DNA of 64,000 bases. Source: an uncultured Gammaproteobacteria bacterium. GTDB taxonomy: Bacteria; Patescibacteriota; Microgenomatia; Levybacterales; UBA12049. Every line of letters starts with the position of its first letter. Position 1 is the stretch's first letter. Of this stretch, positions 6,110 through 15,522 are shown piece after piece. The translations under genes and the position numbers were made by a program. The stretch covers positions 26,579-90,578 of the forward strand of contig CAYWPH010000001.1 in the NCBI GenBank assembly GCA_964460145.1. Direction: 5' to 3'. The notes beneath the pieces were generated by a model, which saw nothing but the letters and a program-made list of their open reading frames with translations, was not told where the DNA came from and did not search any database.

Positions 6110-6163
6110 AAGTAGAGTTGATTATAGCCAAAATGGCCCTAAATTGCAATTTAAATTGGATTG

Positions 6164-6234
6164 TCGGGGAGCCGGGAATTAAACCCGAACCCTACGCACC
6201 CCATGCGCAAATTCTATCGTTAAACTACTCCCCG
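6164..6234 (-). tRNA. tRNA-Pro (anticodon GGG), CCA not encoded
   Basis: The reverse complement reads CGGGGAG...CTCCCCG (7-bp acceptor stem with C1-G72, typical of Pro). Anticodon stem TGCGC/GCGTA carries the loop ATGGGGT, and the T-stem is TCGGG/CCCGG. Confidence 0.75.
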
Positions 6235-9785: not shown

Positions 9786-10328
9786 ATGGATTTGACGAAA
9801 GTAATTATAAAAACAGACAGATTAAAACTTGTTCCAACTTCTTTGGTATACGCTTCTGAAATGTTTAAAGAGTTTACGGAGGAGATAACTACTTTTATGT
9901 ATCCAAAAGCTGCAAAGGAAATTAGGGAAACAGAAGATTTTGTCAGTTCCTCAATTCAAAAAATGAAAAACGGAGAAGAGCTACAAGTTGTAATTTTAAA
10001 TAAAATAACAGGAGAATTTTTAGGTCATGGAGGAATAAGCAAGTTAAAATCTGAAACACCGGAGTTAGGTATCTGGATTAAAAAGAGAGCTCACGGAAAT
10101 AAGTATGGGAGAGAGGCAGTAAAAGGATTAAAGAAATGGATAGATGATAATATCAATTATAAGTACGTAATATACCCAGTTGATAAAAGAAATACATCGA
10201 GTAGGAAAATAGCAGAATCTTTGGGTGGAGTTGTAGAAGATGAATATAAAAAAGAAAGTATGTCAGGTAATATACTTGATGAAGTTGAATATAGAGTTTA
10301 TCCTAAATCTCTCAAATTTTCCTCGTAA
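9786..10328 (+). CDS. GNAT N-acetyltransferase, RimL/RimJ-like
   Basis: N-terminal TDRLKLVP motif typical of the RimJ/RimL subfamily. The C-terminal tail KSLKFSS is encoded by repeat R3. Confidence 0.7.
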   Translation: MDLTKVIIKTDRLKLVPTSLVYASEMFKEFTEEITTFMYPKAAKEIRETEDFVSSSIQKMKNGEELQVVILNKITGEFLGHGGISKLKSETPELGIWIKKRAHGNKYGREAVKGLKKWIDDNINYKYVIYPVDKRNTSSRKIAESLGGVVEDEYKKESMSGNILDEVEYRVYPKSLKFSS

Positions 10329-10350
10329 ATACTTGTGTTATAATTTCTGC
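10309..10350 (+). promoter_or_regulatory. Direct repeat R3 with extended -10 promoter (TGTTATAAT 10336-10344)
   Basis: TCTCAAATTTTCCTCGTAAATACTTGTGTTATAATTTCTGC; 6 nt to ATG 10351. Confidence 0.65.
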
Positions 10351-10788
10351 ATGAGTAATCGTATCTGGGATCCGGAAGATAAATATAAAGCCGCAGTTAT
10401 AAAAGAATATAGTCATTGGGTTGTTGAGGTTAGCTTTAGACAGCATACTTTTGGCTGTTTTATTATTTTTGCAAAAAGAGATATAGAGAAAATTTCTGAG
10501 TTAAAAAGCGAAGAGCTTATTGAGTTAAAAGATGTAATGTCAGAAATTGAAAATGTATTAAAGACTATACCAGAGTTTAATCCCGACAGATTTAACTATC
10601 TACAAATGGGAAATGCATTGCATCATTTGCATTTTCACTTAATTCCAAGATATGAAACGCAGAGAAATTTTGATGGTAAGGAATGGAATGATGAAGCATT
10701 TGGACATCCTCCTGTTTGGAGTAAAACAGAAGTATCTAGAGACTTAGTTATAAAAATAAAAGAGACTATCCAAAAATATTTAAAATAA
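10351..10788 (+). CDS. HIT-family (histidine triad) nucleotide hydrolase
   Basis: C-terminal HHLHFHLIPR is a HxHxHxx HIT motif. The start is taken at ATG 10351, not the listed 10240, because of the promoter-ATG architecture. Confidence 0.7.
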   Translation: MSNRIWDPEDKYKAAVIKEYSHWVVEVSFRQHTFGCFIIFAKRDIEKISELKSEELIELKDVMSEIENVLKTIPEFNPDRFNYLQMGNALHHLHFHLIPRYETQRNFDGKEWNDEAFGHPPVWSKTEVSRDLVIKIKETIQKYLK

Positions 10789-11146: not shown

Positions 11147-11187
11147 AGTCCTAATTTTTAAATTAAACTTTGCTATAATTGTTTTAT

Positions 11188-12237
11188 ATGAATTTAAGAC
11201 CGAGGTTAATTTTTTTCACTGTTGTCGGTTTAATAATTTTGATTTTTCTCTATATTCAAAGGGATATCCTAACACCTTTTATATTAGCAGCAATATTTGC
11301 ATATATTTTTAATCCTCTTATAAATCTATTTTCTAAGACTCTTAAACTTCCAAGGAGTTTGTCAATAATTTTAGTTTACTTAATATTAATATTTAGCGTA
11401 GTTTACATTGGAAACTTACTTACAAGGGAATTAATACGGGAGTCTGAAAATATAAGAGGGATAATTCTTGATTACATAGCTTATTTAAAGTTAAATATAG
11501 AATCACTTCCTCCTATAATACAGCCGTACATCTCATCTTATACAGAATTGCCTAAGGTGCAAATTGGCGCCTTAGGGTTATCTGCTTTTCCTGTTTTTAC
11601 CCTTGCTCTTTCAGGTATTTTAAATTTTTTTGTTTTTATTTTTGCTACATTTTTCTTTTTAAAAGATAATGAAAAAATAACAAGTAAATTTCTGCTTTTA
11701 GTTCCTGGTAAAGAAAGAGTTGAAATAAGCACTCTTATTAGAAAAATCAATACTGTGTTATCGAAATACCTAAGAGGTCAGATAATTCTAATTATTTCTT
11801 TGGCAATAATGCTGTATGTAGGATTTAGTTTCCTTGGTATTAAAAATGCTCTTACTATTTCTATTTTATCTGCACTTGCCGGAATAGTCCCGATAATTGG
11901 CGCAATCGCAACAATAATAATTGGAACTTTTGTTATTGTATTATCCGGAGGAATTCATGCATTTAATCTTGGGGTATTGGAAACAATATTGATAGTTATT
12001 GGAATTTATTACGGCGCACAATTAATTCAGGATTATATTTTAGCTCCTTTTATTCTCGGTAAGGCTGTCAGGCTCCATCCTCTTGTTATACTTTTTGCAG
12101 CTTTAGCAGGTGGAAACATAGCCGGGATATTAGGTCTTATTTTGGCTATTCCAGTTGCTGCAACTACAAAAATTTTATTAGAGTTTATAATGGATAAGAT
12201 TAATCACAGGGATTATTTACTAAACAAAGAAGAATAA
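11188..12237 (+). CDS. AI-2E family transporter (PerM/YhhT-like)
   Basis: Eight-TM protein with the AI-2E topology and a conserved G-rich loop. Extended -10 TGCTATAAT at 11171-11179. Confidence 0.7.
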   Translation: MNLRPRLIFFTVVGLIILIFLYIQRDILTPFILAAIFAYIFNPLINLFSKTLKLPRSLSIILVYLILIFSVVYIGNLLTRELIRESENIRGIILDYIAYLKLNIESLPPIIQPYISSYTELPKVQIGALGLSAFPVFTLALSGILNFFVFIFATFFFLKDNEKITSKFLLLVPGKERVEISTLIRKINTVLSKYLRGQIILIISLAIMLYVGFSFLGIKNALTISILSALAGIVPIIGAIATIIIGTFVIVLSGGIHAFNLGVLETILIVIGIYYGAQLIQDYILAPFILGKAVRLHPLVILFAALAGGNIAGILGLILAIPVAATTKILLEFIMDKINHRDYLLNKEE

Positions 12238-12239
12238 AA

Positions 12240-12592
12240 GTTCTTTGGAAGATAGTAAGCCAGATTCTGTTTCTAAGTTGCAATCTGTCTCAAATGTGAT
12301 ATTTATTCACTTTTGGTTCCTTTTGGGAACTGCCCTCAAACTTCGATGCTAGGTAAAGCACTTTTAACGCATCTTTCGGAGGTTACAGCAGGTAGGATTG
12401 CCCGTTTCACTCCCACTCGTCTCTGTTGCTCTCAGATTATGTTAATTCATAATCTGTTCTAAAACCATATGTGGGTGAGGTTTTAGACACTAGCTATTTC
12501 TAGTCGGAACTTACGTCCCAATCCTGGCTTTACGTCTGTCTGGACTTTCCTGTCCCTAAAATTAGGAACTAGCAACTCATCTTCCAAAGAAC
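12240..12592 (-). ncRNA. rnpB: RNase P RNA (bacterial type A-like)
   Basis: On the minus strand, a P1 closing helix GTTCTTTGGAAGAT/ATCTTCCAAAGAAC brackets the element. The conserved-region-I P4 strand GGAAAGTCC lies at 12542-12550 (reverse complement). The P4 3' strand ACAGAATCTGGCTTA lies at 12254-12270 (reverse complement) and shows a compensatory CCGG->CCAG / CCGG->CTGG change. P2 and P3 hairpins are also present. Confidence 0.85.
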
Positions 12593-12618
12593 GCATGTAT
12601 TATATCAAAAAATGGCTT

Positions 12619-15522
12619 TTAAATCGAATTTAGAAGTGTTGAGCAAAGCATTTTATATTCACAATTTTTACAAAATATTGATTTTGAACATACGAAACTA
12701 CTTTGAGAGATTTCTTTAACTTTTTCTAAAATATATTGTTTAGTTTTATCTAGTTGTAATTGATTTCTTTGAGTGGAAAGTTTTGTATTTGTTTCTATGT
12801 AATGCAAAGATAGGATTAGATTTTGAGGATCAATATTAAAAGGTTTTTCTAAAATTTCTTTTGCAGCCAGAGCATAAAAACTTAACTGTTTATTGTCAAT
12901 TAAATCCTTTTGAGTTAACATATTTTGTCCGGTTTTATAATCAATTATCTCTAATTTTCCACTCTTTAGTTTATCAATTCTATCTATTCTTCCCGTAACT
13001 CTTAGATTATCAATATTGAATTGAAACGGTTTTTCTAAAGCAATCGGTAAGTTGTCTTTATTAAAATTATCTCTTAAGTATTTAAAGATATTTTTTTTGG
13101 CTTTTATTAAAGCTTTTCTCTCATGTTCTTTGCTTGAATATCCTTCGTTTATCCAGTCCAATTTAAAAAGCTTTATTGAATCTTTGATATTCATTTTTTC
13201 TCCATTGATCCAGCTTTGATAGAAATCTCTCAAAACGAGATGAATACTTGTTCCAAAACTTTGTGCCGCAGTAGGAATTGTTGGAATTTTTAAGATAAAT
13301 TTAAGTTTATAATGAAGGGGACATATTTCAAATGCTTGAATATGAGAATATGAAATATAATCTATTGGAATATTTTTAGAGCTAGCTTTTTCTTCAACCA
13401 CCTCTTTTTGTGACCATTCGATTAAAGATAATTGAGTTTCTTTATTTTTAATCTCTTTATTTAATATTTTTTCAACTTCTTTTTGGCCTAAAGCTTCATA
13501 TATAAAAGGGGAAAGTTTTCTATCCCTTTTTTCCTCACTATAATAGTTTGCTGCAGAAAAAAATAACATATCTCTTGTCCTGGTCATTCCTACATAAAAA
13601 AGTCTTCTCTCTTCTTGTAAATGATAATCTCCAGTTGGCAGTATTTCTTTAATAAGTTTTTCTGGAATTGGTATTTTTTCTCTTCTTTCTCTGGTAGGAA
13701 ATCTTTGAGAAACAAGGTTAACCAAAAATACAACAGGAAACTCAAGTCCTTTGCTTGAATGAACTGTTAAAATGTTTACTGCGTTATTTTCTGACCAGTC
13801 AGTGTCAGAAGCCAAAGGACTTTCTCCCATTTGCATTGATAAATCTATCCAGTCAACTACTTCATAAACACTTGCAGTTTTATGCTGCGTCTCATAGGTT
13901 TTTAGTTTATCAAAAAGCTTTGCAATATTTTTTGCTATTAATTCTTCTTTTAAAGTTTTATATTCCAAAATGCTTTTAATTAAGCCTGAGTCTTCCAGAA
14001 AATAATATAAAATTTGTCCTGCTGTTTGTTTTGGTATAAGTTTTAGGTGCTTTTTTATCATTTTAGTCAGTGTTTTAAATTTTTCTTTTGATTTTTTCTT
14101 AACAACTAATTCATCTATGTGTTCTAGGGTTTGAAAAAGAGAATAATTTTTTCTTTTCATAAAATTTAAAAGCACTGCTAAATCCACGGCATCAAAATCA
14201 AAAACTGACATATTTAAAACCCTGTATAAAGAACTTGTATCTTCAAAGCTATACAACACTTTAAGATAGGAGATTAAATCTTTTATTTCTTCCTGATGAA
14301 AAAGTCTTCCGGGACCTAGAAATTGATAAGGAATCTTTGCTCGTTGTAAACTTCTGGTAAAACTATCTGCATGACCATTTGCTCTTACCAGGATTGCAAA
14401 ATCTTTGTAATCATATTTTTTACCATCGTCATAAATTTGTTTAATTTTACTTACAACAGTTTCTGCTTCATCTTCAACTCTTTGTTTATAAATCAATTCT
14501 GTTTTTGCTCCTTCAATATTTCTTACAGAAATTAGCCTTTTATTTATTTTTTGTTTTATCTCGAGTCGGTCTGGATTATTGTTTTGAATAAGATTATATG
14601 ATTTATCCAATATTTCCTTTGTAGATCTATAGTTGTTAACAAGAGAAATTATTTTTGCTTTGGGAAATCTTTTTTTGAATTGGAGTATGTTGGAAATTGA
14701 ACTTCCTCTAAATCTATAAATTGATTGGTCATCATCTCCAACAACATTAATATTTTGTCTTTTACCAGCTAACAATATTACAAGTTGGTTTTGAGCAAAA
14801 TTGGTATCTTGGAATTCATCTACTAAAATATATTTAAACATTTCCTGATATTGTTTTAGAATATTTTTTCTAGTTCTAAAAAGTTTTAGAGTGTTAGAAA
14901 TTAAATCTGAAAAATCCATTACACTTTCTTTTGCTTTTAGATCTTCGTAGGTTTTAAAGGCATGGGAGAGCTCAATATATTTTTTATATTCATCCTTGTC
15001 TTTTTTAATTTCTTTATTTGTTTTTACAAATTCAATATAATCATTTGGCAAAATATCTTCATCTTTTAGTCTTGAGAAGTGTTGCAATATTGCCTCTAAA
15101 AATTTATTTGGATTACCAAGGGGACGGAAATAATTAAGTTTTAGTTTGAAAAGGTTTTCTTTTAAAAACAGAACACTTTCTGCTTCTGTCATTAATTTAT
15201 ACGATGGGTTAAGTCCGATGTGAATACTTTCAGATCTTAAAACTCGATCGCAAAAAGAATGGAAGGTTGATATCCACATTTGAGTATATCCATATGGCAT
15301 TGCCTGATCAACTCTCTCTTCCATTTCAAATGCGGCTTTTTCCGTAAAGGTTAATGCAAGAATTTGGGAAGGGTTAATATTTTTCTTTAAAACAAGATGT
15401 TTTATTCTCTCAGTTATTACAGTAGTTTTGCCGGTACCTGCTCCTGCAATAATTAGTAATGGACCATCACCAAACAAAATAGCACTTAGCTGATTTTTAT
15501 CCAAATTAATACCAGCCTTCAT
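12619..15522 (-). CDS. UvrD/PcrA-like SF1 helicase fused to a C-terminal PD-(D/E)xK nuclease with a 4-Cys Fe-S cluster (AddB/Cas4-like)
   Basis: Walker A AGAGTGKTT and motif II DEFQDTN. The C-terminus has RIDRID...EIIDYKTG plus CPLHY...FCKNCEYKMLC, a C-x2-C-x5-C pattern. Confidence 0.8.
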   Translation of the reverse strand: MKAGINLDKNQLSAILFGDGPLLIIAGAGTGKTTVITERIKHLVLKKNINPSQILALTFTEKAAFEMEERVDQAMPYGYTQMWISTFHSFCDRVLRSESIHIGLNPSYKLMTEAESVLFLKENLFKLKLNYFRPLGNPNKFLEAILQHFSRLKDEDILPNDYIEFVKTNKEIKKDKDEYKKYIELSHAFKTYEDLKAKESVMDFSDLISNTLKLFRTRKNILKQYQEMFKYILVDEFQDTNFAQNQLVILLAGKRQNINVVGDDDQSIYRFRGSSISNILQFKKRFPKAKIISLVNNYRSTKEILDKSYNLIQNNNPDRLEIKQKINKRLISVRNIEGAKTELIYKQRVEDEAETVVSKIKQIYDDGKKYDYKDFAILVRANGHADSFTRSLQRAKIPYQFLGPGRLFHQEEIKDLISYLKVLYSFEDTSSLYRVLNMSVFDFDAVDLAVLLNFMKRKNYSLFQTLEHIDELVVKKKSKEKFKTLTKMIKKHLKLIPKQTAGQILYYFLEDSGLIKSILEYKTLKEELIAKNIAKLFDKLKTYETQHKTASVYEVVDWIDLSMQMGESPLASDTDWSENNAVNILTVHSSKGLEFPVVFLVNLVSQRFPTRERREKIPIPEKLIKEILPTGDYHLQEERRLFYVGMTRTRDMLFFSAANYYSEEKRDRKLSPFIYEALGQKEVEKILNKEIKNKETQLSLIEWSQKEVVEEKASSKNIPIDYISYSHIQAFEICPLHYKLKFILKIPTIPTAAQSFGTSIHLVLRDFYQSWINGEKMNIKDSIKLFKLDWINEGYSSKEHERKALIKAKKNIFKYLRDNFNKDNLPIALEKPFQFNIDNLRVTGRIDRIDKLKSGKLEIIDYKTGQNMLTQKDLIDNKQLSFYALAAKEILEKPFNIDPQNLILSLHYIETNTKLSTQRNQLQLDKTKQYILEKVKEISQSSFVCSKSIFCKNCEYKMLCSTLLNSI

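Follow-up and report, generated by a model that had tools for sequence, protein, structure and literature searches.

A Levybacteria-type RNase P RNA gene in which a pseudoknot with an inserted hairpin probably takes the place of P12

Which gene, if any, lies in the gap between the AI-2E transporter gene and the gene for a UvrD helicase fused to a PD-(D/E)XK nuclease in the window analyzed here, i.e. the whole 64,000-nucleotide (nt) stretch of contig CAYWPH010000001.1 (assembly GCA_964460145.1, positions 26,579 to 90,578)? RNase P trims the 5' leaders from pre-tRNAs and its RNA subunit is catalytic, and the original prediction, made from the letters alone, placed an unannotated gene for this RNA (rnpB) on the minus strand of the gap. 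We find that minus strand 12240-12592 (353 nt, from the first to the last base of helix P1) is rnpB, in itself an ordinary, essential gene, and that it is very probably a Levybacteria-type form in which the catalytic domain is type A and the P12 hairpin is replaced by a pseudoknot between GUGGG and CCCAC. The prediction had the identity and the helices right but overlooked two things, namely that the specificity domain is non-canonical and that the score against curated models is sub-threshold.

Scanned against Rfam with the default gathering thresholds, the whole window gives no match. In a permissive scan of positions 12100-12750 against 4227 families, a single match is significant: the model of bacterial RNase P class A (RF00010) aligns to 12588-12240 on the minus strand over model positions 1-367, i.e. 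from end to end, with 54.8 bits (E = 4.7e-16). This is the covariance-model search that the original prediction had proposed as its check, and neither a transfer-messenger RNA (tmRNA) nor an intron model does better. All other families have E > 2, with no significant tmRNA, intron or riboswitch match in the region scanned, and ARAGORN finds no tmRNA at the site. The idea that some other kind of structured RNA, such as a tmRNA, an intron of group I or II, a riboswitch or another ribozyme, happens to share short motifs with RNase P draws on the sub-threshold score and nothing further, and set against the only significant match among 4227 families, spanning the model end to end, it is practically out of the question. 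Annotation pipelines miss the gene because RNA from this divergent lineage scores below threshold; nine relatives scored against Rfam reach 34.8-95.4 bits, all under the cut-offs, and the archaeal model is the best for one of them.

The sequence and helix features expected of a bacterial RNase P RNA are present. Specifically, P4 is formed by conserved region (CR) I, GGAAAGUCC, and CR-V, ACAGAAnCnGGCUUA, with a bulged U; the enclosing helices P1, P2 and P3 are supported by covariation; and CR-II and CR-III (joining regions J11/12, ACAGArA, and J12/13, GUGAAA) lie at 12403-12427, closed by P11. A profile built from the relatives matches 12588-12237 in nhmmer with 299 bits, and the gene has a folding z-score of -6.5, with 0 of 100 shuffles folding as well.

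The relatives used for comparison were found through the neighboring gene, whose exact sequence in the window matched no record. The closest homologs of the helicase (61-97% identity) are named Candidatus Levybacteria, Levyibacteriota or Patescibacteria, and the host, judged by these names, is a Candidatus Levybacteria-type bacterium (Microgenomates, Candidate Phyla Radiation, CPR). Three full-length relative loci share the order helicase, 320-390 nt gap, AI-2E transporter. Scanning species-representative genomes with a helicase alignment gave 80 loci from Microgenomates and outgroups, and a full-length homologous RNA adjoins the helicase in 27 sources (the window and 26 relatives), usually with the transporter on the opposite side. 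Metagenomes were searched with the pattern CAGARACGA-N(6-9)-TGAAACG-N(3-4)-AATCC, which leaves the pseudoknot bases free (N), and at least 120 stretches matched. Together, metagenome matches and genome loci yielded 112 unique full-length RNAs, a 110-sequence alignment of the specificity domain and 109 distinct sequences on which pairing was counted.

The secondary structure was written by hand on the 26-sequence alignment; RNAalifold was tried on the same alignment and dropped, as it cannot represent pseudoknots and mispaired invariant stretches (e.g. GGA/UCC, columns 56-58/313-315). In the hand-built structure 89.7% of cells are standard pairs, compared with 37-43% when partners are slid by 1-3 columns, and 76 of 102 pairs change on both sides. 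The specificity domain is 95.4% paired across the 109 sequences. Among the relatives, compensatory changes are found in helices P1-P11, P15 and P16, and in the P4 and P6 pseudoknots.

In the specificity domain, the P7-P10 junction is retained, as are P11 and its AA bulge, J11/12 (AACAGAGACGA) and J12/13 (AGUGAAACG). Read along the minus strand, this domain holds the 5' strand of P7 (12523-12525; 98.8% paired), P8 with a GUAA loop (12506-12519; 99.3%), P9 with a GAAA loop (12494-12503; 96.5%) and the 5' strand of P10, UAG (12490-12492; 89.3%), with compensatory changes in all pairs of P7-P9 and in one of three in P10. Two hairpins follow before P11. Hairpin X, at the P10.1 position (12458-12487), has an 8-bp stem, UCUAAAAC/GUUUUAGA, and a 14-nt loop, CUCACCCACAUAUG; its stem is part of the minimum free energy (MFE) fold and changes on both sides at all eight pairs in the 109 sequences. 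Hairpin Y (12433-12456) has a 9-bp stem under a conserved loop, AAUUAA (AAUUrA), is 98.9% paired and changes on both sides at eight of nine pairs. The possibility that X and Y are transposed P13 and P14 was rejected, given that two relatives (L055 and L014) have both hairpins and, in addition, a hairpin where P13/P14 canonically sit.

Beyond hairpin Y, the 5' strand of P11, GAGC (12428-12431; P11 is 99.3% paired with two compensatory pairs), and J11/12 (CR-II) together occupy 12417-12431, while J12/13 (CR-III) and the 3' strands of P11 (with the AA bulge), P10, P7 and P5 occupy 12386-12411. CAGA.ACGA in J11/12 is invariant, as are UGAAACG and AAUCC, yet all three are fixed by the metagenome search pattern; CR-II and CR-III are also conserved in the 26 pattern-independent sequences. 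In bacterial RNase P, J11/12 and J12/13 recognize the T/D-loop elbow of tRNA, and by analogy the same sequences would do so here. P12 is regarded as among the most conserved RNase P helices. In the window RNA, just 7 nt (GUGGGAG) separate J11/12 from J12/13, with no P12 hairpin, and a single nt separates J12/13 from the 3' strand of P11, with no P13 or P14; accordingly, the covariance-model alignment deletes P12, P13 and P14.

What, then, became of P12? The GUGGG strand at the P12 site (12412-12416, minus strand) forms 5 bp with CCCAC (12471-12475, minus strand) in the loop of hairpin X, and this helix is as well supported as the canonical helices are in the same alignment. Among the 26 genome-derived sequences it is 99.2% paired and all five pairs show compensatory changes; pairing falls to 7-65% when the partners are slid, and 0 of 500 shuffles match its paired fraction, compensatory-pair count or covariation score. 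On the 109 distinct sequences it is 97.9% paired, again with compensatory changes at five of five pairs, and has 79 double-change cells vs 19 +/- 3 in shuffles. Lui et al. (PMC8172020) show such RNAs in their drawings as "missing P12" and suggest nothing in its place. On a rival reading P12 is plainly deleted, and the complementarity between the X loop and GUGGG would be non-functional, left by shared ancestry or by chance. All five pairs being compensatory argues otherwise, as does the loss of pairing upon sliding the partners in the larger set (2-64%, with 41.6% at a single column).

Because MAFFT left a few loops one column off register (e.g. L127 and L090), which slightly lowers the column counts, an alignment-free test was added. 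In this test the 5-nt strand of each RNA was compared with the hairpin X loop of the same RNA, and in 101 of 109 the loop contains an exact Watson-Crick complement, always 10-12 nt from the 3' end of the loop. The corresponding null rates are 2.4% for loops of RNAs with a different strand and 1.5% for shuffled loops. The search was limited to Watson-Crick pairs, since G·U-tolerant matching is drawn to a U-rich UUUAC that directly precedes the true site; of the eight exceptions, five are off by one G·U pair or one mismatch. There are 18 distinct sequence versions of the helix (e.g. GUGAG/CUCAC, GUAGG/CCUAC, GCGGG/CCCGC, AUAGG/CCUAU, GUCGA/UCGAC and ACUGG/CCAGU), and since each version arose at least once, they require at least 17 compensated changes whatever the tree. 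GUGGG could also be matched with CCUACC in the 3' strands of P10/P7, but this partner was rejected: it is near-invariant (CCUACC, CCCACC or CCUCCC) and ignores the changes in the strand.

For a plain deletion it can also be said that the helix is short and G/C-rich, that its two commonest versions make up 69 of the 101 exact matches, and that one relative (L187) lacks the P12 hairpin and the pairing alike, which makes the pairing dispensable in at least one lineage. These points do not account for 18 exactly complementary versions at a fixed loop position against such low null rates, nor for support on par with canonical helices when the paired bases were free in the search pattern, and we regard a plain loss of P12 as improbable. 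Rather, the comparisons of sequence indicate that P12 is not just lost in this clade, and that a pseudoknot with the inserted hairpin stands in for it. Such a pseudoknot would close and stiffen the tRNA-recognition module of J11/12 and J12/13, which is normally the job of P12 braced by P13/P14.

A possible origin is suggested by the four relatives in which the pseudoknot is missing (L007, L055, L014 and L187). Among these, two (L055 and L014) have a normal P12 hairpin, with another hairpin following J12/13, one has P12 only (L007), and L187 has neither P12 nor the pairing. All four have a hairpin X capped by a GAAA tetraloop, with no CCCAC-type loop, and because of this shared cap we propose that hairpin X may first have docked through a GAAA tetraloop, plausibly on P12, and that this loop-helix contact may have been converted to Watson-Crick pairing as P12 was lost. 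We lean, without great confidence, toward the wider view that Levybacteria-type Microgenomates carry a distinct class of RNase P RNA, in which a type A catalytic domain is combined with a double hairpin at the P10.1 site and a pseudoknot that evolved from GAAA docking in place of P12.

The catalytic domain, as read from the sequence and its relatives, is type A in layout, with P1-P5, a P4 with a bulged U, the P6 pseudoknot, P15/P16 and a P18-like hairpin; the helices named in the original prediction are all borne out. The perfect 14-bp P1 pairs GUUCUUUGGAAGAU (12592-12579) with AUCUUCCAAAGAAC (12253-12240), both on the minus strand like all strands that follow, and 11 of 14 pairs change on both sides. 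P2 pairs GAGUUGC (12578-12572) with GCAACUU (12281-12275; 92% paired, all six counted pairs changing on both sides), and the P3 hairpin (12569-12552; 95.5% paired, both-side changes at six of six pairs) is in the MFE fold. The 5' strand of P4 belongs to CR-I (AGGAAAGUCCAGA, 12539-12551, with the bulged U at 12544), and the predicted motif, GGAAAGUCC, lies at 12550-12542; the 3' strand is CR-V, ACAGAAUCUGGCUUA, at 12270-12256. P4 is 100% paired in the 26 sequences, with one compensatory change each in pairs 65-579 and 66-578, and GAAAGUCC of CR-I is invariant in the 110 sequences. The compensatory G to A and C to U change claimed for P4 corresponds to A12541-U12262 in place of G-C; this pair covaries in the relatives (25 A-U and 1 G-C, the latter in L054), and the neighboring G-C is replaced by A-U once (L031).

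The P6 pseudoknot links GUAAAGC in J5/7 (12527-12533) to GCUUUAC (12353-12359) in the P16/17 loop, and five of its seven pairs change on both sides in the 26 sequences. In an alignment-free comparison of strand and loop within each RNA, 88 of 110 have a Watson-Crick complement of 6 nt or more, compared with about 16% for pairs of RNAs with different strands. P15 (CCUC/GAGG; 100% paired, with compensatory changes at three of four pairs), the J15/16 internal loop, P16 (GAUGC/GCAUC; 96-99% paired) and the loop with the 3' strand of P6 extend over 12334-12382; P17 is not distinct, the P6 strand being borne by the loop of P16. In the P15/16 internal loop, the 3' side has the sequence GAAGUUU and lacks the GGU motif, which is present in just 4 of 94 relatives. 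The single tRNA gene that ARAGORN finds in the window, tRNA-Pro(GGG) at 6163-6234 on the minus strand, has no encoded 3'-CCA (its discriminator A is followed by CAA), and with GGU missing, this enzyme would presumably not pair with the 3'-CCA of tRNA. The whole-window Rfam scan at gathering thresholds does not report this tRNA gene either.

Downstream, the MFE fold contains a P18-like hairpin, GUUCC-CAAAA-GGAAC (12316-12330), and after it a second hairpin, GUGA-AUAAAUA-UCAC (12296-12310). Across relatives these two stems are, by eye, different in sequence but complementary; their column count is poor (47.6%) owing to the alignment, and five relatives lack both (L003, L035, L043, L054 and L055). 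Peripheral regions vary as well: the distance between the two P4 strands is 253-384 nt within this one clade, eight relatives (L023, L013, L049, L052, L041, L008, L010 and L007) have a hairpin of 25-60 nt between the 3' strands of P2 and P4, a P19-like position (alignment A2, columns 505-565), and three (L052, L061 and L145) have long extensions at the tip of P9.

The assignment of 12240-12592 rests on the RF00010 match, the nhmmer profile of the relatives and the folding z-score, and its surroundings fit the predicted gap. GC content is 0.405-0.425 in both 200-nt windows fully within rnpB, compared with 0.23-0.27 just upstream in the helicase gene and 0.25-0.36 on the transporter side, so the predicted GC enrichment holds; the ORF track leaves the region unexplained as stated, the only contained open reading frame (ORF) of at least 40 aa being a 49-aa TTG ORF on the opposite strand. 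Only 2 nt lie between the end of rnpB and the stop codon (12235-12237) of the convergent AI-2E transporter gene (11179-12237, plus strand). On the other side, the helicase-nuclease gene (12619-15522, minus strand) runs on the same strand as rnpB, which begins 26 nt past its stop codon.

This last arrangement raises the question of whether the RNA is an independent gene at all. Alternatives would be a structured 3' untranslated region or a terminator region within the helicase mRNA, or an rnpB that has decayed into a pseudogene; the sub-threshold Rfam score could be read in the same way, as could the output of a consensus promoter and terminator scanner, which reported neither a full sigma-70 promoter nor an intrinsic terminator for rnpB. 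An extended -10 element, TGaTATAAT (12599-12607, minus strand), can however be read by eye, ends 7 nt before G12592 and would place the transcription start at about this base, the first of P1; it escapes the scanner for want of a good -35. A -10-like box (TATAAT, TAAAAT or TAGAAT, often preceded by TG) is found at the same conserved distance, 5-8 nt upstream of P1, in nearly all of the 27 sources. Moreover, the RNA lies on the strand opposite to the helicase in six relatives (L018, L035, L041, L043, L050 and L055) and is therefore a gene of its own. All of the universally conserved regions are intact, and the helices are kept up by compensatory changes in more than 100 relatives, which implies purifying selection on the structure. 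A transcript tail or a pseudogene is thus highly unlikely.

Several points weigh against the reading of this gene as an rnpB with a pseudoknot in place of P12, or against parts of it. The RF00010 score is below the curated gathering score of 100, although the E-value is highly significant. As many as 84 of the 110 aligned sequences come from a pattern that requires a short P12 site, an ascertainment bias toward the P12-less form; the sequences are related, and shuffle controls ignore phylogeny. The pseudoknot has just 5 bp, and the GUGGG strand enters and leaves the helix at opposite ends, unlike in a hairpin, so its geometric equivalence to P12 is a conjecture. The proposed history from tetraloop to pseudoknot is read from four sequences, and the argument on CCA from one tRNA gene.

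Other observations concern the relatives and the window at large. A near-identical mini-hairpin, (C)CCCGAU-UUAA/UAAA-AUCGGG(G), occurs 23 times in 18 of the 112 RNase P RNAs (L164, L189, L185, L151, L111, L109, L094, L052, L204, L018, L085, L043, L143, L165, L153, L118, L162 and L187) and is absent from the window RNA. It is found at six or more places, including the tips of P3 and P9, the loop of hairpin X, the P16/17 region, P18 and J2/4, and both versions of its loop, which are reverse complements of each other, are present. A genome-wide repeat was considered and rejected, with 19 copies in RNase P genes (44 kb) vs 3 in the other 1.4 Mb of fetched DNA; because copies concentrate in RNase P genes, the mini-hairpin resembles an RNA module, perhaps one that binds a protein or serves in docking. 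Two of the copies outside RNase P genes (L091:11497 and L189:4961) share the flanks GUCAA...UCAA, match no Rfam family and might belong to another, unrecognized structured RNA.

Within the helicase ORFs of relatives, Rfam family RF03531 (n00280, "C. difficile sRNA included into helicase gene") gives sub-threshold matches of 44-56 bits against a gathering score of 65.2 (L001:4886-4976, L055:4352-4452, L003:4855-4954, L007:4406-4504, L010:4376-4469 and L091:6017-6111); these most likely reflect conserved coding sequence of UvrD-type helicases rather than a small RNA (sRNA). Many species-representative genomes with a helicase and RNase P RNA of Levybacteria/Microgenomates type go under the title "uncultured Gammaproteobacteria bacterium", and one goes under "Candidatus Methylomirabilota"; these records of metagenome-assembled genomes seem to be mislabeled. 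Elsewhere in the window, two listed plus-strand ORFs for a GNAT acetyltransferase (9786-10328) and a HIT-family protein (10240-10788) overlap by 89 nt, and the true start of the latter is probably downstream of the listed one.

These findings bear on annotation, since rnpB is used as a marker of genome completeness and standard Rfam-based annotation misses it throughout the clade (the window and nine of nine relatives tested are sub-threshold). A lineage-specific model from the 112 collected sequences would fix this; if the Levybacteria-type RNAs are indeed a class of their own, they merit a separate covariance model, which would end the missed rnpB calls in the group, and they would represent a natural, phylogenetically traceable conversion of a tertiary contact into a helix. 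The relatives keep the presumed intermediates, with P12 and a GAAA-capped hairpin, with the pseudoknot or with neither, and thereby offer a compact natural system in which to ask what scaffolds the tRNA-elbow module of RNase P and how RNA helices and tertiary contacts are converted into each other.

How does this RNA compare with known forms? With type A (RF00010; E. coli M1 RNA) it shares P1-P5, the bulged U of P4, CR-I to CR-V, P15/P16, the P7-P10 junction, the GNRA-looped P8 and P9, the AA bulge of P11, J11/12, J12/13 and a P18-like hairpin, as well as the defining combination of a P6 pseudoknot with P16/P17, except that P17 is not distinct. It departs from type A by lacking the P12 hairpin, P13/P14 and the GGU of the P15/16 loop, and by having an A-U pair in P4, an extra hairpin after P18 and the hairpins X and Y between P10 and P11, where type A has no helix.

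In type B, the loop of P12 (L12) docks on P10.1. By published class definitions (PMC7191817), type B and type C RNAs carry P10.1, and type C combines P6/P16/P17 with P10.1 and P15.2. The window RNA resembles both type B (RF00011, Bacillus) and type C (Chloroflexi) in its insertion between P10 and P11 and in the absence of P13/P14, but it has two hairpins there instead of one, has no P5.1, P15.1 or P15.2, and makes its contact by Watson-Crick pairing with a single strand, whereas types B and C keep the P12 hairpin. For type B the insertion at the P10.1 site is the sole resemblance, as J5/7 has only 8 nt, leaving no P5.1, and P6 and P16 are present. Against the definition of type C in PMC7191817, the window RNA has P6/P16 with an insertion at the P10.1 site and shows no P15.2-like helix, and the host lineage is different.

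RNase P RNAs without P12 are also known from Mycoplasma fermentans and from the type T RNAs of Thermoproteaceae (RF02357), in the part of the literature cited in PMC8172020. They show that RNase P can work without a P12 hairpin, but they are plain deletions in unrelated lineages, type T losing most of the specificity domain, with no compensating pseudoknot reported.

The closest known forms are those of CPR bacteria. In 10 of 35 circularized CPR genomes, RNase P RNA was seemingly absent until thresholds were lowered; many of these RNAs lack P13, P14, P16 and P17, and the UGG motif is missing in 23 of 35 (Lui, Nielsen and Arkin 2021; PMC8172020). Of two genomes that are close relatives, one or both from Microgenomatia, the same authors write that they "appear to be missing P12 ... 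highly unusual" (PMC8172020), the examples being SRX3307784_bin_224 and the Microgenomatia genome ERX2165959_bin_53. With these P12-less RNAs the window RNA has in common a CPR host, of the same class as ERX2165959_bin_53, a score below the cut-off, and the absence of P12-P14 and of the UGG/GGU motif, which is often missing there. In the published account, however, P12 is plainly absent, the word "pseudoknot" does not occur, extra hairpins and pairing at the P12 site are not described, and the drawn examples are without P18, which the window RNA retains. The extra hairpins and the P12-site pairing were found described neither in PMC8172020, the P finder paper (PMC7191817) or a 2026 survey of 337 bacterial RNase P RNAs (PMC12974513), nor in the openly searchable literature, where searches on CPR RNase P structure and on substitutes for P12 led to PMC8172020 only. 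The divergence of CPR RNase P RNAs, their sub-threshold scores and their P12-less appearance are thus already published, while the pseudoknot variant, as far as the compared sequences go, appears to be common in the clade, well supported and undescribed. The window RNA and the P12-less forms of PMC8172020 are almost certainly of the same RNA class.

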